Positions 2,533 through 30,454 of a DNA stretch of 64,000 bases are shown piece by piece. Source of the DNA: an uncultured virus (IMG/VR IMGVR_UViG_3300022602_000071). Lineage: Duplodnaviria; Heunggongvirae; Uroviricota; Caudoviricetes. Position numbers and translations under genes: made by a program. The notes beneath the pieces are model-generated. The model searched no databases and was not told where the DNA came from. It saw nothing but the letters and a program-made list of their open reading frames with translations. The first letter of the stretch is position 1, and each line of letters starts with the position of its first letter. Location of the stretch: the IMG/VR virus record IMGVR_UViG_3300022602_000071; one strand, written 5' to 3'.

Positions 2533-2548
2533 CACTTAGGAGTTATAC

Positions 2549-12703: not shown

Positions 12704-15700
12704 ATGGCAGAATTTAAACTTGGAAGATTACGATTTGTATGGCAAGGCGCTTGGACCACTGGTACAGCTTATGTTAAAGATGATGTAGTAAGAAATGGCG
12801 GAAAAACTTATGTTTGTGTTATAGGACATACAGCTTCTTCTGCATTCGGAACTGACTTTTCAGCAATACCTTCTAAATGGAACCAAGTAGCCGATGGCTC
12901 GACATGGACTGGAAACTGGTCTACAAACACTGTTTACAATTTAAATGATTTAGTCAAGTACAATGGTTATGTGTATATTTGTAATACAGCACATACTAGT
13001 AATGCCAGCGCAAGTTCAGGTGCAAGTCCTGAAACAACAGCAGGATTAGAAGCTGACCAATCTAATTGGACTGTTTTTGCTGCCAGTTTCAATTACACAG
13101 GTGCGTGGGGATATAATACTAGATATAAAGTCGGTGATGTTGTTAAATATGGAGCTGAAACTTATGTTTGTAATACTGGACATACCAGTACACCGACATT
13201 AGAAACTTTGTCAATTAGTTCAGCAACTACTAATGCCGGATCCGGAACTGCGACTTTAACATTTGCTTCAGCTCAGTCAGCAATTCCTTACGCCGTAGGA
13301 TCGACTATTACAGTATCAGGCTTTGCAACTACTCAATTTAATGGCTCATATACTATTACTGCAGTTACAAACACCACAGTAAGTTATAGCCTAGTAGGCA
13401 ATTATACCGGTACTACTGGTTCGGTTGTTAGTAATAGCCTACTTGGTTTAGAAGCTGATCAATCTAAATGGACTGTATTTACAGATGGATTTAATTGGCA
13501 AACAGCTTGGTTACCAACAACACATTATAAAATAAATGATGTAGTAACTTATGGTGGTTTGGTCTATGTTTGTAATACAGCACATATTAGCGCCAGTACT
13601 GCCACATTAGGATTAGAAAACGATCAATCTAAATGGGACTATTTCCATAAAGGATTTAACTATCTCGGCAATTGGAACAGTGCCAGCGTAAGATACAAAA
13701 TAAATGATGTTGTGGTATATGGTGGTGATACTTTTATTTGTATAAATCCACATACTAGTTATAGCACATTTGTTGCAAGTAACTGGTCAAGATTTGTAGA
13801 AGGTTTAACTTATTTTAACACATGGAATAATTCTACCACTTATGCCGTAGGCGATATCGTAGCTTACGGTGGTTATACCTATATAGCTGGCAGTGTCAAT
13901 ATTGGAGTTACTCCGTCAACTGATGCTGCTAGCCCAACAACATTGACTATAACTGGTGCTACTAGCACTGCAAGTGTTGTAACTTTGACCGTTTCTAGTG
14001 GCGGTACTAGTTTTCAAAGTGGACAAACTATAACTGTTACAGGCATGACACCTTCTACATATAACGGACAGTATGTAGTTACAGGTACACCAACAGGTAC
14101 ATCTATTCAATACTTGATTGAAAACGGTCCTCTAGGATCAGCATCTGTATTTGGAAGTATATCAAGTAATAATTGGATGTTGTTTACAACTGGATTTAAA
14201 TTAATAGGCGATTGGTCAGCTAGTCAAAGTTATCAAGTAGGTAATGTTGTTAGAAATGGCGGATATACTTATGTTGCGCTAGTAGATCACACTTCTAGCA
14301 CTGGTAATCGACCTCCAAATAATACCTATTGGAGTAGATTAAACAGCGGTATTCGCTTTAATGCTCCAGGGCTATCATTTAGTTCTTTGAGTACGACAAA
14401 TGTTTCAGTGACTAACGGATCTGCAGCAGGAGCTGTGTTCTCAGTAACAACCTCAGGTACAGTTTATAATGTAACAAAAACTTCCAGCGGATCTAATTAT
14501 ACAGCTGGAGATGTAATTAAAATTTTAGGATCTAGCCTAGGAGGCATTAGTCCATTTAATGATATTACCATCACGGTTAGTACTGTTTCAACTGGAGCTA
14601 TATCTGCTTTTACTACTAGTGGATTTGCAGTAACCTGGGCGTCAGGAACGTTATATGTTGCTGGTGATATTACCGTATATGGACCAAATAGTTATATTTG
14701 TATTTTAGCACACACTGGTGCATCAGGTAATAGTCCTGCAAATGACTTAACAGGCACATATTGGAACTTAATTGCTGCAGGAGCCAGTACTAGTATTTTA
14801 ACCACGCAAGGTGATATAGCATATTTTGGCCCAGGAGGTGCAACTCGTTTACCGATTGGCGCAACAGGGCAAGTTTTAAAAGTTAACTCATCAGGCTTAC
14901 CTAGCTGGGGATATTTTGGCTTAATCAATAATGTATATTATGTTAGTAATACAAATGGAGTGGATAGCCCTGCTCCTAGTTATGGTACTACATTAGATCG
15001 CCCTTGGAAAACAATTGCTTATGCTGCTAAACAGGTGTTTAACGGCTTACAAAATCCTAATGCAACTTACCTATTGACCAAAAACAAAAATTGGGCTGTA
15101 GCAGAAATGTATAATTGGATGATCTACGAAAAAACTAATAGTGTATCTCCTTTTAATCCATCGTCTGCATATGATCAATATAAGACTCAAAGAGATGCCG
15201 GATACATTGTAGATTCTTTAATATATGATATTTCTAGAGGCGGTAATAGTCAGACTGTAGCTGCCGCGCTAGCATTTTTCCAACAAGGCAGCACAAATAT
15301 CTACTATAATGCAAACATAGCAGCTCAAGTATCCTTCTATATAGCGGCATTATCAAAACTATCAAGTTTGTTAACAAGCAATGTTTTGGCAAATACAGCT
15401 CCGGGAACCATATATCAGAACACATCAGGCGGTAGCGGTGGAGTAACTAGCTTAGGTATAACTGGTGCAAGCGGGCTCAACGGTGAAGTAACTTATACAT
15501 TTGCCTCACAAACAAACAGTCCATTTGTAATTGGCGAAACCATAACTGTTTCAGGCGTAAGTCCTAGTAGTTATAATGGCAGTTATAAAGTTATTGCTCT
15601 AAGTCAGACCAGTGTGGTGGTTGCCAGTTCAAATACAGCAACTTATAGTAGTGGAGGAACTATAGCAGGTTCTGTAATTAGCCAAGTTATTGATGCAAAT

Positions 15701-18700
15701 TACACAGCTGAAACTGGCGCATCAACTTTAGTCAGTTCGTTAATGTCTATAATTACTACAGCACTAACAAATCAAAGCACAACAGCGATTCCAGCACCAA
15801 ATTCAGGAGTCACTAGTACAATCTTTATTAAAAATGGCACCTATAATGAAATTTTACCAATTACAGTGCCAGAAAATACTGCGTTAGTCGGCGATGAACT
15901 TAGAGGAGTTGTTGTACAACCTTTCTCTACAGCAGGATCATCTACCGGAGGAGCGGCAATTAGCAACACTACTCTGACTATTACCAGTATTGATAATATT
16001 TTAACAAGTCAAACTATTTCAGCAACTACTTCAGGCGCATATGGAACCACTAGTTCTGGTGGCGTAGTTACTGTAGCCACTACTGCAGGACTGAATACAG
16101 GACATGTATTTGTTGTAACTGGCACTGGTGGCGGCGGCCTTTCTGCTGGTGTTTACTGGGTAGGTCAATTGCTGACAGCTACCACATTAACACTATCTAG
16201 CACATATGCTAATGCGTTGGCAGGTTCTTACATAAGTTTTACAACTTCAAGCCCTACAAGCACTACATTTACAGCTTATGGACAATTTTTAGTAGGATCT
16301 TTTATCAGCGGTGGTATAATAACTGCTCCTATTCAAATTACATCTCAGCTGACTGGCGCCAGTGGTAGCAGCAATACAAGTCAAACATTTAATGGTACTA
16401 GTGGATCTTACAATATAACTTTAAGTTCAGCTAATTCTAATATTCAACCAGGTTATTTTATATCAGGAAATGGTTCAGCTATTTCTGGTATTCCTGCTAA
16501 TACATTTGTTACAGCTGTCAACGGAACTACAGTGACACTTAGTAATGAATTAACCAATTCTTTTACCGGATTTTCTACCACTGCATATTTCTTTATTCCT
16601 GGTTTAACTGGAACTTACAGCATTTATTCTACAACTCCTTCGATGAATATTCTAACTGGTTCTAGTTTAACAATTACAGCAGGGTATGTATCAGGCAATA
16701 TGTTCTATACCAGAAACGGTTCAGGCATAAGAAATATGACTTTGTACGGTTTAACTGGAAAAGTAGGCATACCATTAGTGACAGCTACTGGAAATATTAC
16801 AGCAACAGCAGTAGGAACTTTTGGTACATCCGGTACAGGCGGTGTGGCCACAATTACTAGTACAACTGGTTTAGCTGTAGGAAATACATTTACAGTTACT
16901 GGTACAGGTGGAGGCGGTATTTCTGCTACAACTTATTATGTTGGGCAAGTTTTAACTGTAACTACTTTAACATTGTCTAGCTCGTATGATAATGCACTTT
17001 CAGGAAAATATATTACATTATCAACAGCCAGCCTAACTGGCACTGCTTACTCTGCAAGTTATGGTACAAGCCGACCAACTGCAGGAGCATATGTTAGTCT
17101 AGACCCTGGTACAGGTCCTCAAGATACCAGTGCATGGATTATTAGAAAAAGTCCGTATGTTCAAAATGTAACAACTTTTGGAACAGGATGTGTCGGATTA
17201 AAAATTGATGGAACACTACATCAGGGCGGTAATCATAGTATTGTCTGTAATGACTTTACACAAGTATTAAGTGATGGTATCGGTGTATGGTGCTACGGAC
17301 CAGGGTCACTGACCGAATGTGTCAGTGTATTCAGTTATTATAATCAAATCGGTTATCTAGCAGAAGCTGGTGGTAAAATCCGAGCTACAAATGGAAATAG
17401 CTCATACGGTAGTTATGGAGTAGTTGCAGAAGGGTACGATGCAACTGAAATACCAATTACAGCTCAAGTTAACAACAGATACACTGGCCCTATTATTTCC
17501 AACGTGGTCACTGATGCTTTAAACAAAATTTATCGAGTAGAATTTGCAACTGCAGGTAGTCAAGCCAATTCAGGAACATTTGCTTTTGCCAGTAGCACCG
17601 GTTATGGTGCCACTACGGTAGCTAATGAATTTCGTGACAATGCTGTATTTGAGACTCGATGGTTGACAGGTGGCTTGAATTACATGACGGCTGCAAATAC
17701 TGGACAAAATGGTACAAACGCTCAGTTTACAATTGCGGCCACTGACTTAAATGTTAGTAGTGCATATTTAGGTTTACGACTGTATCTTACAGGTGGAACT
17801 GGTGTGGGACAATATGGCTTTATAGCAAATTATAACAATGGTAGTAAACTTGCATTATTAGCTAAAGAAAGTTTTGGTACACAAACTATTACAGCAACAA
17901 CTAATGGCACAGCCAGTGCAACTGGTGTTTTGTTAGCAGTAGGAATTCCAAATATTCCAGGCGCTTTTGTTCCTACTGGTACAATTACTAACACATTCAA
18001 TGTTGGCATGATTTTAACCAGCACAGGTGCAATTACAGCAGGAACATACATTACAGCTATTACAACAGGATCAATTGGTACTTCAGCTTTAGCTAGTACA
18101 ACACTGAGCACCACTGGTACTATAGGGTCTATAACCGGTACAGGTCCTTGGACAGCAACAATCACTGGCATGAGTTCAACTAGTAGTTTTATTGTTGGTA
18201 TGCCACTAACTGCTACTACAGGTTCTGGTACACTGTATGGCGGAAGTCCAACAAGTGTGTTAGTGAAAAGTATAGTTAGTCAAACTAGCATTACCTACAC
18301 AGTTACTGGGGGATCTACTCCAACTGCTGGTACTGTAACTAACATATCGAGCACATTGTTATCAGCATCAGTATCCGCAAGCAATCTTGCAATTGGCGGA
18401 TTGCTAGTGGGTGGTAGTGTAACAGCTGGAACTTACATTACTGGACAGATAAATGCTACAGGATCTACTGCTTTAGCAACTTGCACAGTAACTGGCACAA
18501 ACGGACAAAATACTTTGACTTTAACCAGTTTTACAGTTGGATCATTATATACTGTTTCGACAGGACAATTTATTCTTCCTATCTCTGGACTGCCAGCCGC
18601 TACTTATGTGACAGCAATTAACATATATACAGGCGTAATCACTATAAGTCAGAATCTAGTTGGAGCTGTTTCAGGCTCTACTAGTTTTTATACAGCTGGC

Positions 18701-21334
18701 GGTTTAGGTACTTATGGTTTGAATCAAGGCGGATCAGGAACACCAACTAGTACTTCAAATTATACAATCAGTGTTAGTCAAACACAGTCAAGTGCTACAA
18801 TAACTGGTACACAAAATACACTTACTGTAGGTAGTACAGCTGGCATCTATAACGGAATGCCTATCTATCTAGCAGCAACTGTAGGATCAAATTTAGCACC
18901 TGCCACATTATACTATGCTATGGCAGTGGTGCCAAATAGCACTATACTCAGTGTGGGATCGACTAATACTGCTACAAGCGCTCTTACAGTAACCAGCACC
19001 GGTTCGGTATCAATTGGATTATATGCAGCAGGCTTTGACCATGTTCTTCCAGGAACTGCTATATCAAGTAATTTAGATACGACTACAACTTATATCATCG
19101 AACCTCGATGTTTATTAACTGGTCCAGGGTTTACTACTGTTACTGGTACACAAACCAGTGCTGCATGGATCGATTGTGCATATGGCGATATAAATGCTAC
19201 TTATAGTTCGGTGAGCGCAACAGGTGGCACTGGTACACTAGCTACATTTTCTGTAGTAAGAACAGGTATTGCTTATGTTGTAACTTTAGTAAGCGGTGGC
19301 CAAAATTATGTAATTGGCGATACATTGACTTTAGCAGGTACAAGTTTAGGAGGCACTAGCACTAATAATATCACAATTACTGTTACTAATACAACAACAA
19401 CTACAAATAGTGGTGTTATTAATAATTTTACCTATACTGGACAAGGTCAAGGCGGTAATTATGTTGCTATAGCAACTGGTGCAACAACTTCTCAATATAG
19501 TACTAATGGTACTACATGGACAGCTGGAGGCGCTTTGCCTGCAGCCAGTAATTGGACCAGTATTGCATCTGGAGTAATTAGCGGAACGACTACATGGGTA
19601 GCTGTACAAAATGGATCTAATAATTCTGCAGTCAGTACAAATGGCGGAGTAACATGGAGTGCTGGCAGTACCCTTGGGGCTAGTGTAAATTGGTCAAGTG
19701 TTGCATACGGAAATGGTTATTTTGCAGCCATTCAATATGGCGGAACTAATTTAGTTTACAGTAATAATCCTAGTTCTAGCTGGTCATCTAGTTCTGGTGG
19801 CCTACCATCTAGTTTAAATTGGACCAGTATTGCATATGGAAATGGCACATGGGTAGCCATAGCAACAGGCACTACCAGCAGCGCATACAGTACTTCTACT
19901 AATGCATCAGTATGGACAGCAAGCAATGGATTGCCAAGCGCTTTAGCATGGAACAGTGTAACATTTGGTAAGGGTAAATTTGTAGCTGTAGCAAGTGAAT
20001 CTACTACAACAGCTTATAGTTTTGATGGCATAACATGGTATGCTAGCGTATTTCCTTTACCAACAGTTCAAAATTGGACTCGTGTTCGTTACGGTCAAGG
20101 TTTATTCTTTGCAACATCTGCCGATACAACTACTGTAGGAGCCACATCAGAAGATGGATTGTTGTGGACAACAAGAACAATGCCACTAAGTGTCGGCGGA
20201 AATAATGTATTGGCATTTGGCAATCCTAATAGTGTACCTTTATGGGTTACTTTACCATACAACAGCACTAGTTTTGCAAGTATAACTACTGGTTGTACAG
20301 CACAAGCTAGAGCTGCAGTAGCTTCTACTACTATAACATCATTTAGAGTTTGGGAACCAGGTAGCGGATATGCTAGCGCTCCTACTATGACTATAACGGA
20401 TCCAAATCAAACTGTTTCAGCAACATGGACTGTAAGAACTGGTACTGGGGCCATAGCAAATCCAACTTATACTAATAGAGGCACTAGCTATGCTACAGCA
20501 AGTGCAAGCGTTACTACAAATGGTTATGCTGATATCTATCAACCATCTACTATTGTAAATGTGTCTGGAATTTATACAGTTCCTACAGCAGGATCCAATG
20601 TAATATTTGCCAACAATAGCACAGTATACAAACTAGTGCAGATTAACAATTTAGTTGGCACAGGTGGTGGCCTTTATCCTTACACAGCAACTTTCCAGAT
20701 TAATCCAAGTCTAACAACTAGTAATGCTCCTATCAATGGAGCTGCTATTTCAATTAGATTAAAATATAGCCAAGTTCGATTAACAGGACATGATTTCTTA
20801 AATGTTGGAACTGGTAATTTTTCTAATACTAATTATCCAGGAATACCGTTAATTAATCCTGACAGCAATTATCAAACTGTAAGCAATAATGGTGGTCGTA
20901 CATTCTTTACAAGTACTGACCAAGACGGTAATTTTAATGTAGGTAATTTGTTTAGTGTACAACAGGCTACAGGTGTTACTACCCTAAATGCTAGTGCATT
21001 TAATGTATCTGGATTAAACAGTTTAACAATTGGTTCAGTAAGTTTAGGTACAAATAGTGCTACGATTAGCAGTTTTTCTACCGATCCTTACTTTACAGCA
21101 AATAGTGACAACATTTTACCAACTCAAAAAGCTATTAAATCATATATTACAAGCCAAATTGGTGGTGGTGGTGGCACTTTGATTGTAAATACACTAACAG
21201 CTGGTATAATTTATGTTGCAGGCAACACTATTAGCACCACAACAGGCGGGCAAATTAAAGTAGCAAACAAAATGTATTTTGTAGGCGGCATTGATGGAAG
21301 TCCGCTAGCTATGAACTTTTTATTATTAAATTAA
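12704..21334 (+). CDS. Giant tail fibre/spike (2876 aa), paralogue of 6636 with more inserted modules
   Basis: Same N-terminus (F(K/R)+.RLRF.W.G.W), 8 CBM-like repeats, shared core, shared YSQVRLTGHDFL C-terminal block. Confidence 0.75.
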   Translation: MAEFKLGRLRFVWQGAWTTGTAYVKDDVVRNGGKTYVCVIGHTASSAFGTDFSAIPSKWNQVADGSTWTGNWSTNTVYNLNDLVKYNGYVYICNTAHTSNASASSGASPETTAGLEADQSNWTVFAASFNYTGAWGYNTRYKVGDVVKYGAETYVCNTGHTSTPTLETLSISSATTNAGSGTATLTFASAQSAIPYAVGSTITVSGFATTQFNGSYTITAVTNTTVSYSLVGNYTGTTGSVVSNSLLGLEADQSKWTVFTDGFNWQTAWLPTTHYKINDVVTYGGLVYVCNTAHISASTATLGLENDQSKWDYFHKGFNYLGNWNSASVRYKINDVVVYGGDTFICINPHTSYSTFVASNWSRFVEGLTYFNTWNNSTTYAVGDIVAYGGYTYIAGSVNIGVTPSTDAASPTTLTITGATSTASVVTLTVSSGGTSFQSGQTITVTGMTPSTYNGQYVVTGTPTGTSIQYLIENGPLGSASVFGSISSNNWMLFTTGFKLIGDWSASQSYQVGNVVRNGGYTYVALVDHTSSTGNRPPNNTYWSRLNSGIRFNAPGLSFSSLSTTNVSVTNGSAAGAVFSVTTSGTVYNVTKTSSGSNYTAGDVIKILGSSLGGISPFNDITITVSTVSTGAISAFTTSGFAVTWASGTLYVAGDITVYGPNSYICILAHTGASGNSPANDLTGTYWNLIAAGASTSILTTQGDIAYFGPGGATRLPIGATGQVLKVNSSGLPSWGYFGLINNVYYVSNTNGVDSPAPSYGTTLDRPWKTIAYAAKQVFNGLQNPNATYLLTKNKNWAVAEMYNWMIYEKTNSVSPFNPSSAYDQYKTQRDAGYIVDSLIYDISRGGNSQTVAAALAFFQQGSTNIYYNANIAAQVSFYIAALSKLSSLLTSNVLANTAPGTIYQNTSGGSGGVTSLGITGASGLNGEVTYTFASQTNSPFVIGETITVSGVSPSSYNGSYKVIALSQTSVVVASSNTATYSSGGTIAGSVISQVIDANYTAETGASTLVSSLMSIITTALTNQSTTAIPAPNSGVTSTIFIKNGTYNEILPITVPENTALVGDELRGVVVQPFSTAGSSTGGAAISNTTLTITSIDNILTSQTISATTSGAYGTTSSGGVVTVATTAGLNTGHVFVVTGTGGGGLSAGVYWVGQLLTATTLTLSSTYANALAGSYISFTTSSPTSTTFTAYGQFLVGSFISGGIITAPIQITSQLTGASGSSNTSQTFNGTSGSYNITLSSANSNIQPGYFISGNGSAISGIPANTFVTAVNGTTVTLSNELTNSFTGFSTTAYFFIPGLTGTYSIYSTTPSMNILTGSSLTITAGYVSGNMFYTRNGSGIRNMTLYGLTGKVGIPLVTATGNITATAVGTFGTSGTGGVATITSTTGLAVGNTFTVTGTGGGGISATTYYVGQVLTVTTLTLSSSYDNALSGKYITLSTASLTGTAYSASYGTSRPTAGAYVSLDPGTGPQDTSAWIIRKSPYVQNVTTFGTGCVGLKIDGTLHQGGNHSIVCNDFTQVLSDGIGVWCYGPGSLTECVSVFSYYNQIGYLAEAGGKIRATNGNSSYGSYGVVAEGYDATEIPITAQVNNRYTGPIISNVVTDALNKIYRVEFATAGSQANSGTFAFASSTGYGATTVANEFRDNAVFETRWLTGGLNYMTAANTGQNGTNAQFTIAATDLNVSSAYLGLRLYLTGGTGVGQYGFIANYNNGSKLALLAKESFGTQTITATTNGTASATGVLLAVGIPNIPGAFVPTGTITNTFNVGMILTSTGAITAGTYITAITTGSIGTSALASTTLSTTGTIGSITGTGPWTATITGMSSTSSFIVGMPLTATTGSGTLYGGSPTSVLVKSIVSQTSITYTVTGGSTPTAGTVTNISSTLLSASVSASNLAIGGLLVGGSVTAGTYITGQINATGSTALATCTVTGTNGQNTLTLTSFTVGSLYTVSTGQFILPISGLPAATYVTAINIYTGVITISQNLVGAVSGSTSFYTAGGLGTYGLNQGGSGTPTSTSNYTISVSQTQSSATITGTQNTLTVGSTAGIYNGMPIYLAATVGSNLAPATLYYAMAVVPNSTILSVGSTNTATSALTVTSTGSVSIGLYAAGFDHVLPGTAISSNLDTTTTYIIEPRCLLTGPGFTTVTGTQTSAAWIDCAYGDINATYSSVSATGGTGTLATFSVVRTGIAYVVTLVSGGQNYVIGDTLTLAGTSLGGTSTNNITITVTNTTTTTNSGVINNFTYTGQGQGGNYVAIATGATTSQYSTNGTTWTAGGALPAASNWTSIASGVISGTTTWVAVQNGSNNSAVSTNGGVTWSAGSTLGASVNWSSVAYGNGYFAAIQYGGTNLVYSNNPSSSWSSSSGGLPSSLNWTSIAYGNGTWVAIATGTTSSAYSTSTNASVWTASNGLPSALAWNSVTFGKGKFVAVASESTTTAYSFDGITWYASVFPLPTVQNWTRVRYGQGLFFATSADTTTVGATSEDGLLWTTRTMPLSVGGNNVLAFGNPNSVPLWVTLPYNSTSFASITTGCTAQARAAVASTTITSFRVWEPGSGYASAPTMTITDPNQTVSATWTVRTGTGAIANPTYTNRGTSYATASASVTTNGYADIYQPSTIVNVSGIYTVPTAGSNVIFANNSTVYKLVQINNLVGTGGGLYPYTATFQINPSLTTSNAPINGAAISIRLKYSQVRLTGHDFLNVGTGNFSNTNYPGIPLINPDSNYQTVSNNGGRTFFTSTDQDGNFNVGNLFSVQQATGVTTLNASAFNVSGLNSLTIGSVSLGTNSATISSFSTDPYFTANSDNILPTQKAIKSYITSQIGGGGGTLIVNTLTAGIIYVAGNTISTTTGGQIKVANKMYFVGGIDGSPLAMNFLLLN
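12749..14770 (+). repeat. Eight CBM5/12-like protein repeats
   Basis: Counted in the translation; boundaries approximate. Confidence 0.65.
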
Positions 21335-21707
21335 CGGAGATAAAATATGGCAACAGGAAGATTAGGCATTGTAGATATTCCAGTAGCAGCAACAGATACA
21401 CTACTGTATACAGCACCTGCTGGGTATTTTACAGTGGCCACTGTTAGCGTAGCAAATAGAAGTAATAGTCCTGTGACCATTCGTATGGCTATCAGCACAA
21501 GTTCTAGTACAATGGCTTCAAATGAATACATAGAATATGAAACAGAAATTTTATCGCATGGAGTGTTAGAGCGCACTGGACTTGTGATAAACGCTGGATA
21601 TTCTATATTGGTTAGATCTAGCGCATTGCTGGTAAATTTTGTAGCTTACGGAATTGAAACTTCAACAACTTAAAACGGAGATAAAATATGGCAACAGGAA
21701 GATTAGG
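21333..21707 (+). repeat. 34-bp perfect direct repeat (21333-21366 and 21674-21707) covering the SD and start of two tandem genes
   Basis: AACGGAGATAAAATATGGCAACAGGAAGATTAGG occurs twice, 341 bp apart. Confidence 0.9.
21347..21673 (+). CDS. Small beta-rich virion protein, tandem copy 1
   Basis: MATGRLG...TLLYTAP...GVLERTG...YGIETSTT. Confidence 0.8.
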   Translation: MATGRLGIVDIPVAATDTLLYTAPAGYFTVATVSVANRSNSPVTIRMAISTSSSTMASNEYIEYETEILSHGVLERTGLVINAGYSILVRSSALLVNFVAYGIETSTT

Positions 21708-22014
21708 AGCAGTAGATCTTGGCTCAGCAGCAACGGATACTTTGCTTTACACAGCTCCGGCAGGGACTTTTACAGTAGCCAGTGTAAGTATTGTTAATAG
21801 GACAAATTCAGATTCAACTGTTAGATTAGGGCTGTGCGCCAGCAGTTCGACAATTGCTACAGGTGAATTTTTAGAGTATGAAACAGAATTACTACCACAT
21901 GGAGTGTTGGAACGAACTGGAATTGTGGTTAATGCTGGTTATAGCTTACTTTTTAGGGGTAGCATTACTGGTATCAATGCTGTAGTATACGGAATTGAAA
22001 CATCAACGACATAA
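21688..22014 (+). CDS. Small beta-rich virion protein, tandem copy 2
   Basis: Same length as and collinear with 21347. Confidence 0.8.
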   Translation: MATGRLGAVDLGSAATDTLLYTAPAGTFTVASVSIVNRTNSDSTVRLGLCASSSTIATGEFLEYETELLPHGVLERTGIVVNAGYSLLFRGSITGINAVVYGIETSTT

Positions 22015-22017
22015 ATA
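22011..22017 (+). promoter_or_regulatory. T4-type late promoter overlapping a stop codon
   Basis: ATAAATA upstream of an AAGGA SD. Confidence 0.6.
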
Positions 22018-22038
22018 CAGTCATAAAGGAATAAAGAT

Positions 22039-22368
22039 ATGGGACGATATATTACAACAACAGGAACAGCTGGATCGGTTATTCGTTATAATGCCGGTGT
22101 CGCATATACTGCACTACCAAACGACAGAATTATTTGTACAGCTGGCGGGCAAACAATTACATTGCCGGCAACTTCGACTAGCTTAGACGGAGATACAGTT
22201 CAAATAATTGATGCTACTGGGGCGTTTAGTTCAAGCAATTGCACAGTTGCTCAAAATGGTGCTGCTTACATTGCCAATAACAATGGTAATTTAACATTAA
22301 ACGTTAATTATTGTGCTGTTACACTAATCTATTCCAGTGCATATGGTTGGTTATTAGGCGGACATTAA
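22039..22368 (+). CDS. T4 gp9/gp10-like fibre-attachment domain protein
   Basis: YTA..NDRI..TITLPA....GDTVQIIDA.G.F...L.Y....GW pattern. Confidence 0.55.
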   Translation: MGRYITTTGTAGSVIRYNAGVAYTALPNDRIICTAGGQTITLPATSTSLDGDTVQIIDATGAFSSSNCTVAQNGAAYIANNNGNLTLNVNYCAVTLIYSSAYGWLLGGH

Positions 22369-22369
22369 T

Positions 22370-23170
22370 ATGGCAACATCTAGTCTGTCAGGTTTAATAA
22401 TTCAAAATCCAACATCCGCGGCTGCTACCTATCGATTTAATCAAATAGCTGTGATGACTAGTGGTCATAACGATGACGGAGTCCAAAATGGTGGTGCTTG
22501 CTGTTGCTTCAAACCAAATAGCTGTACCACATATATAACATTTGAACTGTGGGGTGCTGGCGGAGATGGTGGTGGTGGATGCTGTTGTCAGGGCAATTAT
22601 CGTTCACCGAACCCTGGGTTTTATGTCAAAAAAACAGTTAGCGGAAGTCTTTGCCCTTACTATAATGTCTGTTCAGCTGGTTCAGGATGTTGTTCCTGTG
22701 GTTGTTGCGGAACATGCGGATTTCCTAGTTTTGTAACAAATTCAGCAGGTTCAACTATTGCTTGTGCAGTAGGCGGTTCTGGTGGATGCACTGGGTGTTG
22801 GCATGGTATAGGTTGTAATCCCTGTACCGGCATTTGTCAGTATGCCTGCAATACTTTAATTTGTTGCGGACCTTCAGCATATGATATTGCTTTTCAAGGT
22901 ACTTCTTTAGGTCAAATGGACAATTATTTCTGCGCTCAGTTTACAGTACAATTAGTTCAAGGTGCTATTAAATATCAACCAAATGCTAGACACAGTCTAG
23001 ATCCTTGTTGCACCTCGATGACCATAGAGGGTTGTTGTAAATTTGGTAGCAGCGGCTCACAAGCTATACCGTGGCCAGGCGGTCCAGGAAATGCTGGTAC
23101 AGGTTGCGGTGGCGGATGCTGTTGGGGTCAATGGGGATCTAGCGGACTAGTATTAATTACATACGGTTAA
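22370..23170 (+). CDS. Cys/Gly-rich gp38-like adhesin (copy 1)
   Basis: ITFELWGAGGDGGGGCCC...G..GLVLITY; about 32 Cys in 266 aa. Confidence 0.6.
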   Translation: MATSSLSGLIIQNPTSAAATYRFNQIAVMTSGHNDDGVQNGGACCCFKPNSCTTYITFELWGAGGDGGGGCCCQGNYRSPNPGFYVKKTVSGSLCPYYNVCSAGSGCCSCGCCGTCGFPSFVTNSAGSTIACAVGGSGGCTGCWHGIGCNPCTGICQYACNTLICCGPSAYDIAFQGTSLGQMDNYFCAQFTVQLVQGAIKYQPNARHSLDPCCTSMTIEGCCKFGSSGSQAIPWPGGPGNAGTGCGGGCCWGQWGSSGLVLITYG

Positions 23171-23182
23171 AAAGGATAAAAA

Positions 23183-24166
23183 ATGGGTGATCAATCAAAA
23201 AATACCAAGGTATCTGTAACATTTACATATCCTGTTGCAGATTATTATTTGGCTCAAACTAATAGTAAAAATCTAACAGGCACTTGGACTTATACAGGTC
23301 CAGACAAAATTTGGATATTTGTAGATAATACTACAAAGAAAATTATCGGCAGATTCCACTATACTGAAGCAGATGACGGTGCAGATATTCCTACACCCGA
23401 AGGTCAAACTAAAGTTTTAGTAGATGCTAATGTAAATCCAGATATTGCCAGTTTGTGTCATGGAGAAATAGATTATGCTACATTGCCTCACGGACAAAAG
23501 ACACATCCTGACGACAGCCAGTACTTATGGCCTGAACCAACTCCTCCAGATCATACATATGAATTAACAGAAATTCAATATGATGCAACTACTAATACAT
23601 TTATTAAACCGTATCCTTGGAAAAAACCTCATATGACATGGGAAGAATTACTTACTTGGAGAAACGGTAATTTAGCAGGAACTGATGAATTGTATAACAA
23701 ATCAAGTCCATCAGATAAAGCACACTGGGCAGCCTATAGGCAATGGATGAGAGATTTAACTGCTACACATCAAGCCAATGGAGTTAATCCTTGGGAGGTG
23801 ATTCCTCCATTAAGACCAGATGAATTGCACAATGATAAATCTAATGCTGCCATTCCTCCAGTACTGTATACACCAGTTAAAAACCCACAGATTACCAGTA
23901 CCACAGGCGTGTTTTCTTGTGATGCGTTAATCGTAGCACCAACTGTGGGTCAGCCTGTAAAGATTACAGGAACATTCAGCAGCGGTAGTATAACTGGATA
24001 TACATCAGGTGCGACTTATTATGTTGTTGGTTCTCCTACAACTACAGCTTTCCAATTATCGTCAACAGCAGGCGGCGGACCAATTACCAGCACAGTCAGT
24101 ACAGGTACCATTACTGGTATTGATATAAAATTGACAATTTTGGCTAGTGTTCGACCAGCAAACTAA
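23183..24166 (+). CDS. Tail-fibre assembly chaperone-like protein with a C-terminal beta module
   Basis: W..L..WRN..L..TD...W..YRQ..RDL motif of phage tail assembly chaperones. Confidence 0.65.
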   Translation: MGDQSKNTKVSVTFTYPVADYYLAQTNSKNLTGTWTYTGPDKIWIFVDNTTKKIIGRFHYTEADDGADIPTPEGQTKVLVDANVNPDIASLCHGEIDYATLPHGQKTHPDDSQYLWPEPTPPDHTYELTEIQYDATTNTFIKPYPWKKPHMTWEELLTWRNGNLAGTDELYNKSSPSDKAHWAAYRQWMRDLTATHQANGVNPWEVIPPLRPDELHNDKSNAAIPPVLYTPVKNPQITSTTGVFSCDALIVAPTVGQPVKITGTFSSGSITGYTSGATYYVVGSPTTTAFQLSSTAGGGPITSTVSTGTITGIDIKLTILASVRPAN

Positions 24167-24180
24167 TAGGAAATATATAA

Positions 24181-24936
24181 ATGGCATCGACTAATTTAGC
24201 AACATTATTTCCCGATAGTAGATTTACACAACCATTATCATACGGCAATCCATATAATGTAATTTACATTTATAATACCAGCACCAACGCGGCAAGTAAC
24301 GGTGGACAATGCTGTTTATGGACAGTTCCGTCAGGCGCTACATGGGCTAAATTTGAAGTCTGGGGCGGCGGCGGCGGTGGTGGTGGCAGTTGTTGCTGTC
24401 AACAACAATGTTTCAGCGGCGGCTCGGGCAGCTATGCTAGAAAAACTATTCAAGTAGTTCCAACACAACAATATACAATCTGCGCTGGTGGTTCAACTGG
24501 TTGCAGTAGCAACTGTAATGGCGGTTGCGGATATGCTAGTTACGCTTGCAATGCGACAGCTAGTTATCCGTTGTGTTTGTGCGCTTCAGGTGGATTTTGC
24601 GGAGTAACTGGTTGTTTTTTCAGTAATAACAGTTGTGGCGCAGTAAGTTGTCAAGCGGGAAGTGCTTGTGGTTTTGATTTAGCAATTTGCGGACTAGTTT
24701 CAGGAGCAGGCGCATCTACTTGTGGATATATGAGTTGGGACTACGGTTCTGAGCCCACTTACATTGGCGCTGGGGTCAGGATGAGTTTGGACCAGTGCGG
24801 AAATACTTATGGAGACGCTCGCGGCGGATGCGCTAGTTTTCCGGGAGGCGGCGGATCAGGCGCTAGCGCTAACGGCGGTAACTGTTATCAAGGCGGTCAC
24901 GGTGCGGGCGGACTTGTAATCATAACTTACAAATGA
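24181..24936 (+). CDS. Cys/Gly-rich gp38-like adhesin (copy 2)
   Basis: WTVPSGATWAKFEVWGGGGGGGGSCCC...GGLVIITY; about 23 Cys. Confidence 0.65.
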   Translation: MASTNLATLFPDSRFTQPLSYGNPYNVIYIYNTSTNAASNGGQCCLWTVPSGATWAKFEVWGGGGGGGGSCCCQQQCFSGGSGSYARKTIQVVPTQQYTICAGGSTGCSSNCNGGCGYASYACNATASYPLCLCASGGFCGVTGCFFSNNSCGAVSCQAGSACGFDLAICGLVSGAGASTCGYMSWDYGSEPTYIGAGVRMSLDQCGNTYGDARGGCASFPGGGGSGASANGGNCYQGGHGAGGLVIITYK

Positions 24937-24949
24937 TAGGAATATAATA

Positions 24950-25717
24950 ATGGCAACTATTAATTTAGCAACGATAGCGTTCACAGTTCCCTCAACAACG
25001 ATATTAACCACTAATACTCCTAAAGAATTCAGTGTTTGTAATACCAGTCCACAGTCGGCAGCTAATGGTGGATTCTGTTGTAATTTTGTAGCACCAGCTG
25101 GAACCACATGGATAACTTTTGAAATGTGGGGCGGAGGATCTGGTGGAGGTGGCGCATGCTGTTGCATGCAGTCAACTCAAGGAGGAGGTGCAGGATCATA
25201 TGCTATAAAAACAATTAATTGCGGAACAACAGGCGGTCTAGCTGGTGCCAGTTATACAATTTGTGCTGCAGGTTCAGGCAACTGCGCTGGAGCATGCTAT
25301 GGATGCGGAGGCTATACCAGTTATGTAAACGGTCCAGGATTGAGTAATTTTTGTGCACAGCCAGCTAGAAGTGGTGATACTCATTGTTTTGCTGGTGATG
25401 GGTATTACATTCCTTGTGTAATGTGTTTTTATTGCTGTGCCTGTGGCGGCGATATTAATATAAGCGGTGCTAACGGTTCAGCTTTAACTACTCAGTATTG
25501 TTTTTCATATTCTTATGGATATACAGCAGTAGCAGCTGCTACAGTTTCAGGTCCGGTAATCAACGGTGGACAATGTGGAACTGGCGGTGGAGCCAATGGA
25601 GTATATGGTTATGGCATTGTGCCAGGTGGCGGCGGACAAAATGCCACTAGTTATGGAGGCGGTTGCTGCTGGGGCGGATTCGGTAACCAAGGACAAGTTT
25701 CAGTAACATACGGATAA
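24950..25717 (+). CDS. Cys/Gly-rich gp38-like adhesin (copy 3)
   Basis: FVAPAGTTWITFEMWGGGSGGGGACCC...GQVSVTY; about 22 Cys. Confidence 0.65.
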   Translation: MATINLATIAFTVPSTTILTTNTPKEFSVCNTSPQSAANGGFCCNFVAPAGTTWITFEMWGGGSGGGGACCCMQSTQGGGAGSYAIKTINCGTTGGLAGASYTICAAGSGNCAGACYGCGGYTSYVNGPGLSNFCAQPARSGDTHCFAGDGYYIPCVMCFYCCACGGDINISGANGSALTTQYCFSYSYGYTAVAAATVSGPVINGGQCGTGGGANGVYGYGIVPGGGGQNATSYGGGCCWGGFGNQGQVSVTYG

Positions 25718-25720
25718 AAA

Positions 25721-26680
25721 ATGAACAAAATTATTAGTCAAACATTTACTTATGATTTACCAGATGATTATTTGTTGACAACAAATAATTTGAAAAAAAC
25801 AGGCACATGGACTTATAATGGCCCTGATAAAATTTGGGTATTTGTAAACAAAGAAACATTAAAATGGCAACAAGGTCATTTTCTTACCGAAGATGATGAT
25901 GGTCCAGACTATCCAGCCCCGTTAGACTGTCATCTGGTCAAAGTAGATTGCACAACAAATCCCAAAATGTGCCATATATTTGGCGCAGACGCTAGCAGAT
26001 ATCATTATGATAAATTGTCAACAGCGGATGAAACATTAGCTGACGGTGCTGTTTACACTAGACCAGATCCTCCACCACCTGATCACACACATGATCACGA
26101 GACTGTAACATATGATCCTGCAACAGATACATGGTCCACACCATGGAGGGAACCTCATGTAACTTGGAATCATATTAGAGGATGGAGGAATGGTATACTA
26201 TCATCTACAGATCATATAGCCACAGCCGATGATATTCCTTCAGCCACAAAAACTGCTTGGCAAACTTACAGACAAAAACTTAGAGATTTACCTCAAGTTC
26301 ATGGTGCAACTAACATGCTCAAAACAATCGATTTGACTGCAGCATCTCCTACTAATACACAAGGTCAAACGATCATTCAACTTACAGATGCTACTGGTAT
26401 CACTGTAGGAATGGATGTAGGCATTACTACTTTTGGTTGTCCAGACATTTTTGCTAGTCATACAACTGTTGTAAGTATTTCTAGCAATCAAATTACGCTG
26501 AGTTCCGCACTAGTAGCTACCCCTTTAAGTATAAATGGCAATGCAGCCATAACTTTTAGTCCGGCTCCAACTACACATCCTTGGAAGGTCCAACCTTACG
26601 ATGATCCTAATGGCATATACGGTACAAATAAACCCACTACTACCGATCCGTTATTTGACCCAGATCCTAATCATCCATAA
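25721..26680 (+). CDS. Tail-fibre assembly chaperone-like protein, paralogue of 23183
   Basis: TFTY...GTWTY.GPDKIW+FV; PPDHT; WRN.IL..TD..WQTYRQKLRDLP. Confidence 0.65.
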   Translation: MNKIISQTFTYDLPDDYLLTTNNLKKTGTWTYNGPDKIWVFVNKETLKWQQGHFLTEDDDGPDYPAPLDCHLVKVDCTTNPKMCHIFGADASRYHYDKLSTADETLADGAVYTRPDPPPPDHTHDHETVTYDPATDTWSTPWREPHVTWNHIRGWRNGILSSTDHIATADDIPSATKTAWQTYRQKLRDLPQVHGATNMLKTIDLTAASPTNTQGQTIIQLTDATGITVGMDVGITTFGCPDIFASHTTVVSISSNQITLSSALVATPLSINGNAAITFSPAPTTHPWKVQPYDDPNGIYGTNKPTTTDPLFDPDPNHP

Positions 26681-26707
26681 AAAAAGCAGCTTACGCTGCT
26701 TTTTTTT
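26679..26707. terminator. Bidirectional intrinsic terminator
   Basis: A7-GCAGC-ttac-GCTGC-T8 between convergent genes. Confidence 0.9.
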
Positions 26708-28523
26708 AGGTATTACTGATTTTAATTAATTTACCATATTCTGGTAAGTACAAATATTCAATACTGCATCGACTTAGGGTATCTAGCGCATCATCTAATG
26801 TCTCCACTAATGGATCGCCACCTAAGTTAAAACTGGTATTAAACAAAATTGGTACTCCTGTCTGATTATAAAATTCAGATATAAGTGCATAAAAATGTTT
26901 ATTTTGTTCTTCAGTAACAGTTTGAATCCTACAAGTTCCGTCCACATGGATAATACTAGGTATTTTTTCAGCAACCCCTTCTTTACAGTTTACAGCATAC
27001 ATCATATAAGGACTGTCTTTCATTCCTCTAAGATCAAACCACTCGTGGACATGATCCTGAAGTATACTGCCTGCAAATGGTCTAAAATACTCACGATGTT
27101 TTACACTATTTACAAAATCTTTACCATCAGCGTAAGTAGGATTAAACAAGATACTGCGATTTCCCAGTGCTCTTGGCCCGTTTTCGCTGCGACCTTGGAA
27201 CATAGTAACAATATTTTTATTGAGCAGTAATTCTACAACATCTGCATAACCGGCATCAGTTACTTCTGCACTATAATTACTAGCCAGCTGATTAATTTCG
27301 TCATCGGAATAGTTGTATTCAAAACCTAAATATAGTCCATCTTTGCAATGATTTTTATTTTGGAAATTAGGGCCAGACATGAAATATTTTTTGTGTACCA
27401 GTAAAGCAGCTCCAATGGCTGTTCCAGCATCGTTACTAATTGGTTCAACATATAGTTCAATGCCGTCTTTTTGTAAATGTTGCAGGTAATAATAATTAGC
27501 CACACAATTTAATCCATAACCGCCACTGAGAACTACTTTCTTAATGCCAGTTTTTTCTACAGCTTTGCGAATTAACAATAATACTTGTTCCTGTGTCTGC
27601 GTTTGACAAGCATAAGCTAAATCTCTACGACTTTGAAGAAGTGTAACATCTTCTGTAGATTCTTCGTTTAGGAATGTAAATAATTTAGCGTTAATAGCTG
27701 CACCATTAGGATATGTAGGAACAACTATATTTCTGTTGGATAGTGGTGCTATTCCAGTTGTATCAAATAACGCAGGGATTTGATCATTAGGATTACCGTA
27801 AGGAAATAGACCCATAGTTTTCCCGGCTTCTATACTATCCCAACCGCAATATTGAGTTACAGCTTCGTAAACTTTAGTAATTCCAGCTCTATCAGTGACT
27901 AGTGCTTCGTGAGTTTGTCCATGTTCATCATAAATGGAACTATCAAATTCTTCCACTAAAGCGCCAGTTAATGGACCACGAGTTCCTATGTGTTTATAGA
28001 CAGTTTTGAACCAATCAGGATAGGTGCATTCATAAACGCTTTCAACTTCCCAACCGGTGAGACTTTCTCTACCTGCTGTCAATGGTATAAAAGTTCCTGC
28101 TCCGTCCACAATAACTGCAGTGGCTTCGTCAAAACCTGATCGATAAAATGCGCAGGCTGCATGCAATTTATGATGAATATGACTTAGATCGATAACTTGA
28201 GGATGTTCATAAGGATTTTCTTTTCTACTGATTAAATTTAGTTTCCTTGCTATTCCTGTATAAATGTCATCGCCTGAAAAATCTACTCTTCCTGCTGTAT
28301 CTTTTAGAGCTTGAGTATGTGCAATTACAAGATAATCTAAATGATCTGTATATTCTAAAATCTCCATCATGGCAGCAAACGGTCCACCGTCATATTTTTT
28401 ACGGCTTAACCGTTCTTCTTCAATACTAAAAACAATTTCATCATTTTTTAGTAGACAAACACTGCTGTTATGTCCTCTAGCAACACCTGCAATCCAGATA
28501 TCTCTTGAAAGTTTCTTTGTCAT
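26706..28523 (-). CDS. Carbamoyltransferase, NodU/CmcH/TobZ family (start probably 28523 rather than 28544)
   Basis: HHKLHA..AFY.S, DGAG, GKTMGL, LNCVAN, NDAGTAIGAA, GPRALGNRSIL, FRPFA, HVDGT.R.QTV, NTSFN motifs; AGGA SD before MTKK. Confidence 0.93.
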   Translation of the reverse strand: MTKKLSRDIWIAGVARGHNSSVCLLKNDEIVFSIEEERLSRKKYDGGPFAAMMEILEYTDHLDYLVIAHTQALKDTAGRVDFSGDDIYTGIARKLNLISRKENPYEHPQVIDLSHIHHKLHAACAFYRSGFDEATAVIVDGAGTFIPLTAGRESLTGWEVESVYECTYPDWFKTVYKHIGTRGPLTGALVEEFDSSIYDEHGQTHEALVTDRAGITKVYEAVTQYCGWDSIEAGKTMGLFPYGNPNDQIPALFDTTGIAPLSNRNIVVPTYPNGAAINAKLFTFLNEESTEDVTLLQSRRDLAYACQTQTQEQVLLLIRKAVEKTGIKKVVLSGGYGLNCVANYYYLQHLQKDGIELYVEPISNDAGTAIGAALLVHKKYFMSGPNFQNKNHCKDGLYLGFEYNYSDDEINQLASNYSAEVTDAGYADVVELLLNKNIVTMFQGRSENGPRALGNRSILFNPTYADGKDFVNSVKHREYFRPFAGSILQDHVHEWFDLRGMKDSPYMMYAVNCKEGVAEKIPSIIHVDGTCRIQTVTEEQNKHFYALISEFYNQTGVPILFNTSFNLGGDPLVETLDDALDTLSRCSIEYLYLPEYGKLIKISNT

Positions 28524-28524
28524 T

Positions 28525-29448
28525 TTATATTCCTGTATTTTCAACGAAGTTATTTAAATTTGGTCGGAAAATTTTTTTACTTTGGGGTTCGTCTCTAAAC
28601 AGTTTTCCTATGTGATGTTCGAATACTCGTTTATTAGACTTATATTTCTTATGAATATTCATAATCTTAGAAACAATATCATCGAGTTGATTAAAATATT
28701 CATCCGGTAATGCTAACTTATTTTTCATTTCTTGTTCAATGTAAATCCTTGACTGTGCAGGACTAGGGTGTAAATCTATAAAACTTTCACCATATTCATC
28801 TAAAAAATCAAATGTTAAGTCTGGATATTTTTGACAATGCAATTCTAACGGAGTAAGCCAACGATCTTTTCGATTTTCAAACAATGGTTCTCGATAAACA
28901 GCTAAGTGAGGTATTATGTCCCATGCTGTTTTTTCTTTTGAAACATATTTAGTAACTCCAGTTTTTTCACCGTAACCTGTACGATCACGGATATCGGCAC
29001 CCAATTTACTAATATCTCCTATACTGGTCATATACCATGTACAACCTATTGAATCGAGTAGGCCTTGTACCAATGATATAAAATTTAAAGTATGCATGAA
29101 ATAAGCAGGTTCATGGAAAAAGGTTTCAATCCATTTTCTATCATATATTGTTTGATTTTTATAGTTAAAAATACTACCTGCTGTCTGCCATCCTGGCAAT
29201 CTGTCCGGTAAATTATTAACGTGATACCAATCGTTACGAAGATGACTGCTCCATTGAATCAACACCGTATCATCTTTAGTTATAGGATTCCTAACATGGC
29301 ATTCTGATACCAATTCTGCAATAGCCCTATTACCTAATCCTGGTTCAGCCCATTGTTCTATTCCATCAAAATGATAACAGAGCAATTCAGCATAGCTAGG
29401 CCATGCATAGCTGGTGTAGCTACAGCCAAATATTCTCAATCTTTTCAT
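28525..29448 (-). CDS. SGNH/GDSL-like hydrolase-fold protein (start probably 29448)
   Basis: FGCSYT, G.GN and D.HP blocks; ATG immediately after the upstream stop. Confidence 0.55.
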   Translation of the reverse strand: MKRLRIFGCSYTSYAWPSYAELLCYHFDGIEQWAEPGLGNRAIAELVSECHVRNPITKDDTVLIQWSSHLRNDWYHVNNLPDRLPGWQTAGSIFNYKNQTIYDRKWIETFFHEPAYFMHTLNFISLVQGLLDSIGCTWYMTSIGDISKLGADIRDRTGYGEKTGVTKYVSKEKTAWDIIPHLAVYREPLFENRKDRWLTPLELHCQKYPDLTFDFLDEYGESFIDLHPSPAQSRIYIEQEMKNKLALPDEYFNQLDDIVSKIMNIHKKYKSNKRVFEHHIGKLFRDEPQSKKIFRPNLNNFVENTGI

Positions 29449-29449
29449 T

Positions 29450-30454
29450 TTATCTTGCACAACTTGCAGGTTCAGCAGTTGTAGCGTGAATCTCAGGTGT
29501 TGCTAGCGTACTATTTTTAAATTTTTTAATACCTGTGTCTACAGATTTAATAATAGCATCTTCAACAGCTTCATTCATTTTCATAATGCCGTCATTTCCT
29601 CGATCAGCAACTTCGTCCATTGTAATTCTAATAGGACTATAAGTTCTACGATCTCCTCCTACATCTAACACTTCAAACATATCACATTCGGGATAAGATA
29701 CATTTACATCAAATGTCGAGCCTAACACTACACTAGCAGGCTTGTACATTGCATAAGCAAGGTGTTGCCCTACACTATCACAGCCTAAAAAGTAATCTGC
29801 ATTTCCAATTACTCCTGCCCATTGGCGGATATTCATATTTTGAGGAAATGCTACCGGGTCTTTGCAACCATGCTTGCTAAAATCTATACCAATTTCACTC
29901 ATCATTATAACTGCATATTTTTTCTGCAATTTCTTAATAATATTAATTACATGTTGCGCTTCGAAACTTCGACCACTGGAATCAAAAATAACATTATTTT
30001 GCGAAACAACTCCGCGACCAAATGGTTGAAATACAACAACAACATCCTTTTTTGTTTTTTCTTTTACTTCTTTGACTATGTTGTGTCCTGTAAACATCTC
30101 TTCATTAGACATTTTTATTGTAGGTCTTGGCAAGGGTCGTATGCCTTTATTATTGATGATGATATCAAAAGCCTGTGCAATCGAACATTTTTGATTGAAA
30201 TATTCCCAAACTCTGTAAGGCTCGGGGCTAATTAGATCCATATTGACTAATTTTTCTTCAAATAAATTTTTGTGCCAATGATCGTAGGTTCGAGAAAATA
30301 ATGTAGGGTGTCCTTTGAACATATCAGTGCCACCTTCACAAACTATAATAAAATCTTTACTAGTTTCTTCGTAATATTTTTCCAGTGCTGGTATAGCGCA
30401 AATAGTTCTTCCGGCTCCACCGTTAATAAAAAATGCTTTAGCTCTTTCAGTCAT
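29450..30454 (-). CDS. GT-B glycosyltransferase, GT9 (heptosyltransferase)-like
   Basis: GGAGRTICAIPAL at the N-terminus; IRQWAGVIGNADYFLGCDSVGQHLAYAM.KP..VVLGST. Confidence 0.7.
   Translation of the reverse strand: MTERAKAFFINGGAGRTICAIPALEKYYEETSKDFIIVCEGGTDMFKGHPTLFSRTYDHWHKNLFEEKLVNMDLISPEPYRVWEYFNQKCSIAQAFDIIINNKGIRPLPRPTIKMSNEEMFTGHNIVKEVKEKTKKDVVVVFQPFGRGVVSQNNVIFDSSGRSFEAQHVINIIKKLQKKYAVIMMSEIGIDFSKHGCKDPVAFPQNMNIRQWAGVIGNADYFLGCDSVGQHLAYAMYKPASVVLGSTFDVNVSYPECDMFEVLDVGGDRRTYSPIRITMDEVADRGNDGIMKMNEAVEDAIIKSVDTGIKKFKNSTLATPEIHATTAEPASCAR

Follow-up and report, generated by a model that had tools for sequence, protein, structure and literature searches.

Three cysteine-rich paralogues with a glycine-lattice fold in a conserved phage fibre cassette: predicted receptor-binding tips

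Why should a phage keep three small proteins that are both rich in glycine and crowded with cysteine directly behind its tail-fibre genes? The question is raised by a 64,000-nucleotide stretch of DNA (the window) from an uncultured member of the Caudoviricetes (IMG/VR record IMGVR_UViG_3300022602_000071). Its plus strand encodes three such proteins, referred to here as A (22370-23170; 266 amino acids [aa]), B (24181-24936; 251 aa) and C (24950-25717; 255 aa). A first-pass annotation, made from the letters alone, described the span 22370-25717 as three paralogous polyglycine adhesins resembling T-even gp38, with about 32, 23 and 22 cysteines. We predict that A, B and C are ancient paralogous receptor-binding fibre tips, in which a tumour necrosis factor (TNF)-like/glycine-rich (TG) fold is cross-braced by a core of cysteines; we give this reading a probability of about 60%.

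The cysteine counts of the first-pass annotation, roughly 9-12% of the residues, were exact, as were its CCC triplets. A has 32 Cys (12.0%), 48 Gly and two CCC triplets, B has 23 Cys (9.2%), 51 Gly and one triplet, and C has 22 Cys (8.6%), 56 Gly and one triplet, with glycine making up 18-22% of each protein. The 44 other open reading frames (ORFs) of the window (19,826 aa) contain 0.62% Cys, with a maximum of 2.75%, so that A, B and C are enriched 14- to 19-fold (binomial tails 1e-18 to 1e-30). The three proteins are indeed paralogues; they align at 33-34% pairwise identity and share 61 invariant columns, 15 of which are Cys. All of the motifs named at the outset are found among these columns, namely N40-G41-G42-x-C44-C45, F58-E59-x-W61-G62-x-G64-xx-G67-G68-G69-x-C71-C72-C73, Y98-xx-C101-xx-G104-S105-xx-C108-xxx-C112 and, at the C-terminus, G259-x-V261-xx-T264-Y265. 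About 25 residues precede the TG domain in each protein and start with a common M-A/S-x-x-x-L motif. The annotated span holds all three genes, but it also takes in X1 (23183-24166), which is unrelated to them.

To which family do these proteins belong? B matches the Pfam family PF21722 (Gly_rich_2, a phage glycine-rich domain) at 38.3 bits (E 1.9e-9), which is above the gathering cut-off of 24.3; C reaches 12.6 bits, below that cut-off, and A has no Pfam match. Since the three are 33-34% identical and all match PHROG 4205 (function unknown; E 4.2e-16 for A and 1.3e-26 for C), A and C are placed together with B. None of them matches PF12810, the family of the ALK/LTK-type domain, and NCBIfam has no match for these proteins.

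The structure prediction that the first-pass annotation had called for gave a confident AlphaFold2 model of B, made from a 98-sequence alignment, with a predicted local distance difference test score (pLDDT) of 91.2 and a predicted template modelling score of 0.85. Foldseek relates this model to gp24, the fibre of phage Pam3 (7ypx_A; E 1.7e-8). The top Foldseek chains were re-ranked with VIA-align, and an independent scan covered 48,161 chains. As in gp24, a TNF-like beta-sandwich is continuous with a glycine-motif lattice in the B model. The N-terminal helical trimerising and docking domain of gp24 is absent, and the approximately 25 residues at this end contain a single 4-residue helix at a pLDDT of 58-61. 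The other solved relatives come from distant systems. They are the tail-tip chains of mycobacteriophage Bxb1 (PDB 9D93, Qa/Qb), a siphovirus of an actinobacterium, and the TG ligand-binding domain of ALK/LTK (7NX3, 7LRZ), an animal receptor kinase ectodomain that is 18-19% identical in the alignment. In the viral model collection BFVD, 226 matches were found at E<=1e-3; the best are uncharacterised proteins of the cyanophages S-CAM3 and P-SSM2, and the others include tail fibres annotated as such and collagen-like proteins from giant viruses.

The likeness to gp38 therefore stands only in part. The glycine-motif lattice is present and is common to both folds, but the overall fold, as modelled, is of the Pam3/ALK TG type and not that of gp38. 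S16 gp38 was not among the 50 best fold matches, so a weak similarity may remain. Searches of PDB sequences with the profiles A1 and A3 produced chance antibody matches or none, and no match to gp38 at E<=10. A/B/C resemble the gp38 of S16/T2-type phages in having a distal glycine-motif lattice and a short N-terminal attachment region with no stalk; they differ from it in that the middle domain of gp38 is a beta-helix and its lattice is built of three layers. According to the available text on Pam3, gp24 itself shares with S16 gp38 only the glycine lattice (root-mean-square deviation of 2.7 A over 52 C-alpha atoms; PMC9608196).

Pam3 gp24 is among the closest solved relatives. It consists of an N-terminal helical stalk, a TNF-like domain and a domain rich in glycine in which 12 extended motifs form a four-layer lattice; the protein is a trimer, and its folding needs gp25, a Mu-Tfa-like chaperone that is absent from the virion (all as described in the part of PMC9608196 available to us; structures PDB 7YPX and 7YFW). 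A/B/C lack the stalk and docking domain of about 75 residues, and they come as three paralogues, whereas Pam3 has one gene. They also contain 9-12% Cys, whereas Cys28 is the only cysteine of gp24 that is discussed in the accessible portion of PMC9942802. Sequence profiles do not link gp24 with A/B/C.

Are the cysteines conserved beyond this one phage? Among 269 non-identical family members, numbered as in B, Cys occupies positions 44, 45, 71, 72, 73, 101, 145, 181 and 206 in 96-100% of the sequences, and positions 108, 134 and 235 in 91, 85 and 81%; a 121-sequence alignment agrees. Thus, as the first-pass annotation had anticipated, cysteine positions are conserved in homologues, and 12 of them form a near-invariant core (81-100%). 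In the B model, C44 and C45 lie in strand 43-48, the second strand of the sandwich, C101 in strand 97-102 and C134 in strand 131-135, while C145 ends strand 142-145. The triplet C71-73 occupies a non-beta stretch that directly prolongs the G62-G69 run, the first poly-Gly motif.

Cys-poor members of the same Pfam family are encoded by Syn9 (266 aa), S-SM1 (350 aa) and P-SSM2 (485 aa). Like the Cys-rich proteins, they have VP.G...v.v.GGGGGG near the start and finish with G.v.i.y. They have 0-2 Cys and 22-29% Gly; the corresponding values for the Cys-rich subfamily are 22-36 Cys and about 20% Gly. A rough alignment places Gly or other small residues of the Cys-poor proteins at loop positions 71, 108, 206 and 235, whereas the strand positions are taken by V, A or T. 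Each Cys-rich protein carries 10-20 further cysteines beyond the core; these vary, and Gly is a frequent alternative in their columns. Gly and Cys codons are separated by one base. These outer cysteines look like tolerated or favoured substitutes for Gly and not like obligate partners.

The chemistry of the cysteines is harder to read. A disulfide ladder in which all of the cysteines are paired, one of the three possibilities first raised, does not agree with the data. A preference for even numbers and for changes in twos, as in disulfide-rich domains, was not found. Cys counts are odd in 154 and even in 115 of the 269 members, with no preference for even numbers in any ortholog clade. Among 109 independent nearest-neighbour pairs (61-97% identity), no Cys column changed in 47, one in 23, two in 11 and three or more in 28, and the net difference was +-1 in 35 pairs and +-2 in 13. 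These single gains and losses, together with the frequent exchanges with Gly, argue against a fully paired ladder. With its even number of 12, the core by itself could consist entirely of pairs. Co-occurrence of cysteines was rejected as a pairing signal, as its top pairs are clade signatures confounded by phylogeny; the only possible cross-strand pair that emerged is 123/132, on neighbouring strands (r 0.68).

A phage-encoded thiol oxidase, suggested at the start as a partner to look for, did not appear. The search covered 10 records, half of them large related contigs and half genomes of cultured phages. Erv1/ALR was found in none, but the control genomes were likewise silent, which makes this result uninformative; DsbA was also found in none. 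Thioredoxin occurs in one of the 10, as a 122-aa ORF far from the cassette in the record G002. Within the window, none of 34 ORFs has a thiol-oxidase, DsbA or thioredoxin domain.

Could the conserved cysteines bind metal instead? Zn or Fe held in thiolate or Fe-S clusters would make the lattice rigid during assembly in the cytoplasm, and the lack of an even-number preference, the common single gains and losses, and the missing DsbA and thioredoxin family genes in the complete genomes of P-SSM2 and S-CAM3 would all suit this explanation. Twelve core cysteines would also suit three sites of four. Metals are known from phage fibres and tail tips, as in the iron of T4 gp37 and the Fe-S cluster of lambda gpL. 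On the other side, there are no conserved canonical CxxC pairs, conserved His is lacking, the AlphaFold2 model is confident without metal, and no metal-binding family was matched in the Pfam, PHROG and NCBIfam searches. We therefore regard metal in place of disulfides as rather unlikely.

The reading we prefer, with the TG domain cross-braced by its cysteine core, would work as follows. At many lattice and core positions, cysteines replace the Gly, small or hydrophobic residues of the Cys-poor relatives, and those of the 12-Cys core would brace a domain nearly devoid of a hydrophobic core. Most likely this would be done by disulfides that form once the virions leave the reducing cytoplasm, possibly with the addition of metal-thiolate sites. 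We give even odds to the core cysteines pairing as disulfides after lysis, perhaps alongside metal sites. Beyond this and pure metal sites, the remaining probability falls to free cysteines that simply serve as small packing residues or to their modification. There is a precedent for functional disulfides in phage tail proteins; in Pam3, disulfide bonds hold the fibres to the wedge, and dithiothreitol sets them free, as reported in the available part of PMC9942802.

How widespread is the subfamily? A word-indexed search gave 385 matches. The 120 listed are all unnamed or called "hypothetical protein"; they contain 6.0-11.2% Cys, and 116 of these 120 have a CCC triplet. An exhaustive profile search of 1.84 billion representatives (clusters at 50% identity) found 906 with E<=1e-3, of which 221 reached E<=1e-10 and 53 reached E<=1e-30. 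Each of the 147 representatives that were newly listed is rich in Cys, and those of at least 230 aa hold 5.9-12.2% Cys. Some relatives of 350-480 aa have helical or beta N-terminal extensions, and the ESM Atlas clusters of the subfamily are 100% viral.

Cultured phages have these genes as well. An apparent absence from them (a blastn search with the region and tblastn searches with B and C were empty even at E 10) turned out to be a filter artefact, and profile searches match S-CAM3 and P-SSM2. In S-CAM3, three copies lie in tandem (gp156-158; 329, 302 and 300 aa; 36, 35 and 24 Cys), and one gene of the type of X1 and X2 comes after them. In P-SSM2 there are two (356 and 355 aa, both with 36 Cys), on either side of such a gene; these two, PSSM2_304 and PSSM2_306, carry N-terminal extensions. 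All of the S-CAM3 and P-SSM2 copies are annotated as "hypothetical protein". Atu_ph07 lacks the Cys-rich subfamily, as do all three of the cyanomyoviruses Syn9, S-PM2 and S-SM1, whose virion proteomes are published (PMC3037559, in the part available). In Syn9 (locus L091, ORF 2049-3227) a 392-aa frame beside the 266-aa Gly-rich gene contains the N-terminal half of Gly_rich_2 twice, with a hydrophobic Cys-containing stretch in between; it has the look of a tandem duplication or of an artefact of the frame.

The three genes are part of a larger arrangement. A is followed by X1 (23183-24166, plus strand; 327 aa, 2 Cys), and B and C are followed by X2 (25721-26680, plus strand; 319 aa). With G for the Cys-rich genes and X for the other two, the order is G-X-G-G-X. 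X1 and X2 are paralogues of each other (39% identical), and X1 is not a paralogue of A/B/C. X2 matches PF16778 (Phage_tail_APC) at 36.1 bits, above the cut-off of 26.6, and X1 reaches 22 bits, below it. Both match "tail fiber assembly" PHROGs (9740 and 4912 for X1; 4912 at E 4.8e-12 for X2), and a profile of 56 X sequences matches PDB 2kz6 over a helical hairpin (E 3e-6). The AlphaFold2 model of X2 (pLDDT 90.6) has an N-terminal beta domain (1-140), the helical hairpin (145-195) and a C-terminal beta domain (196-282). Both proteins are twice as long as Pam3 gp25, with extra beta domains at the two ends, and the fold search with X2 recovered neither gp25 nor any other fibre chaperone. Judged by family, both are candidate Tfa-like chaperones. 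By analogy with gp25 and gp24, X1 would help A, and X2 would help B and C, to fold and assemble.

To what would the tips attach? Only about 25 residues precede the domain, and so A/B/C probably dock by their short common N-terminus onto another fibre component, having no stalk of their own, and would sit at the far end of the fibre system, where receptors are bound. The candidates are encoded just upstream. A giant tail-fibre gene (12704-21334, plus strand; 2876 aa) matches PHROG 9851, tail fiber, at E 1.6e-155, and its C-terminus is conserved upstream of the cassette; it is the likely carrier of the tips. Between it and A lie s1, s2 and s3 (21347-22368, plus strand; 108, 108 and 109 aa), which have PHROG tail-fibre matches, resemble C-terminal pieces of tail-fibre proteins and are the other docking candidates. 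From s1 through s3, A, X1, B and C to X2, the plus-strand ORFs 3' of the fibre gene are tightly packed. s1 (21347-21673) and s2 (21688-22014) are tandem duplicates; in related loci only one ORF of this type precedes s3 in 66 of 71, and two do so in 5. A second giant tail-fibre gene (6636-12674; 2012 aa) also matches PHROG 9851. Near their N-termini both giant fibres carry CBM_5_12 carbohydrate-binding repeats, with 6 matched stretches in the 2012-aa protein and 5 in the 2876-aa protein.

It is also conceivable that A/B/C are not parts of the virion at all, and that they are assembly factors or act at the surface of the infected cell. T4 gp38, after all, is a non-structural chaperone. There is no proteomic evidence for the subfamily, and, as noted above, the phages with proteomes in the accessible part of PMC3037559 lack it. 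Against this, the closest solved relatives are virion parts, namely Pam3 gp24, which was detected in virions (PMC9608196, as far as available), and the Bxb1 tail-tip chains, and dedicated chaperone-like genes come next in the cassette. We consider a role outside the virion to be very unlikely.

Why three copies? A pattern scan of IMG/VR confirmed at least 436 loci among 671 candidates, and the best 80, which are 76 distinct loci, were kept. Synteny was counted in 75 of these (L005-L079), many of which are near-duplicates of one another. The five-gene order G-X-G-G-X is complete in 71, and the other four are cut by contig ends. A giant fibre gene, a small ORF and s3 lie upstream in all 71 complete cassettes. 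A tree of 51 A, 50 B and 52 C non-identical proteins (FastTree, LG+gamma, midpoint rooting) places all 52 C-position proteins in one pure clade (support 0.98). There are two phage groups, and within each of them the A proteins (17 and 34) and the B proteins (17 and 33) form pure clades with supports of 0.82-1.0. These position-wise clades indicate that the triplication is old and that all three copies have been retained.

The two groups separate L005-L027 and L050 from the rest. Within the window's own group, the A-position genes are sister to the B-position genes, and in the other group A is nearer to the C clade. This pattern suggests an old event in which a B copy replaced A or converted it.

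The first-pass annotation took the three divergent copies to mean several receptor specificities. The copies are divergent, and A, B and C could be alternative adhesins, each one carried by a separate fibre and probably homotrimeric. The window has at least two giant fibre genes, the C-terminal halves of A/B/C, taken as distal loops, are the most variable parts, and two chaperone-like genes suggest two assembly units. The copy number also differs, with two in P-SSM2 and three with one chaperone in S-CAM3. But the order of the trio is fixed wherever the contig is complete, and the clades are old (C 52/52; A and B pure in each group), unlike those of rapidly swapped host-range cassettes. The fixed order and the old clades imply that the trio is a fixed set and not a collection of recent interchangeable host-range copies. 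Alternative adhesins are therefore possible, though we would not favour them.

A bolder proposal, which we regard as improbable and offer as a speculation, is that A, B and C are three subunits of one heterotrimeric knob, which would cap a homotrimeric giant fibre and have its lattice locked by a cysteine hub. Complement C1q is a heterotrimer of paralogous TNF-like chains. In a polyglycine-II helix there are three residues per turn, and three consecutive cysteines point three ways; the CCC triplet, as the prolongation of a central poly-Gly helix, would then face conserved cysteines on neighbouring motifs or chains. If this were true, the hub, whether disulfide or metal, would define a redox- or metal-dependent class of phage receptor-binding tip, and it would fit the redox-sensitive fibre attachment reported for Pam3.

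Downstream of the cassette is a three-gene module on the minus strand (26706-30454). It consists of a NodU/CmcH-type carbamoyltransferase (26706-28544; PF16861 and PF02543), a 311-aa ORF lacking any family match, and a 334-aa ORF that is 57% identical to its S-CAM3 homologue and shows a weak Glyco_transf_9 hint (E 0.052). Enzymes of the NodU type carry out O-carbamoylation of sugars. The module may glycosylate or carbamoylate either a fibre or a glycan of the host. It extends, in P-SSM2 and S-CAM3, into further genes whose annotations are heptose synthesis, "cysteine dioxygenase" and sugar epimerase.

Might the cysteines, then, be modification sites (S-glycosylation or S-carbamoylation) for this carbamoyltransferase and putative glycosyltransferase? 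This was another of the possibilities first raised. The three module genes lie directly downstream of all 71 complete cassettes and have stayed there even where the module is inverted (forward in 51, inverted in 20), and the annotated cysteine dioxygenase and heptose-synthesis genes of P-SSM2 and S-CAM3 would agree with it. But adjacency among related phages may be inherited synteny, the glycosyltransferase hint is weak, and the conserved cysteines are in strands and lattice motifs of a confident fold and not in exposed tails. We judge modification to be highly improbable, and a functional link between module and cassette is uncertain.

What kind of phage carries these genes? The window has a T4-like structural module with a tail sheath (43411-47232), tube genes, large terminase, UvsX and SSB. 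The large terminase TerL (52382-53983) is 52% identical to that of PA5oct, and UvsX (58055-59110) is 66% identical to those of the jumbo myoviruses Vibrio phage 2.275.O, Atu_ph07, CBB and GAP32. Related contigs are up to 268 kb long, with completeness estimated at 75%, which implies genomes of about 350 kb. The fibre cassette and glycan module (21347-30454) are shared with some cyanophages of the Kyanoviridae (P-SSM2, S-CAM1/3). As judged from these comparisons, the genome is a mosaic, with a core like that of jumbo myoviruses and a cassette and module like those of Kyanoviridae, and phage lineages appear to have exchanged the host-recognition module. Photo_RC (the psbA family) is absent from five large related contigs that are 45-75% complete; these contigs are partial, and a cyanobacterial host is thus not shown.

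Two other features of the window deserve mention. The tail sheath is unusually long (1273 aa), and the canonical sheath PHROG covers only residues 658-1266, which implies a large N-terminal or inserted extension. Among the tail and packaging genes, a 142-aa ORF (49503-49931) matches the N-terminal domain of TnsA-like endonucleases (E 7e-21) and may be a homing-endonuclease-like insertion.

Both the fold and the pairing of an adhesin with a chaperone are already known. In contrast, a literature search gave no description of the Cys-rich subfamily, of its CC/CCC core or of the G-X-G-G-X cassette, and the word "cysteine" does not occur in the texts of PMC1079782 and PMC3037559, the latter as far as available. 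Glycine-rich lattice domains are a main receptor-binding module of phage fibres, known also from human ALK/LTK, and how a domain with almost no hydrophobic core is stabilised is poorly understood. The subfamily described here is large (906 clusters and at least 436 viral-contig loci) and is unannotated even in the model cyanophages P-SSM2 and S-CAM3. Whether fibre tips are hetero-oligomeric or multi-specific can be put to the test in its fixed three-paralogue cassette. An answer to the choice between disulfide, metal and free thiol would reveal how proteins of this kind fold under the reducing conditions of the cell, and whether abundant aquatic phages depend on redox state or on trace metals for their adsorption.

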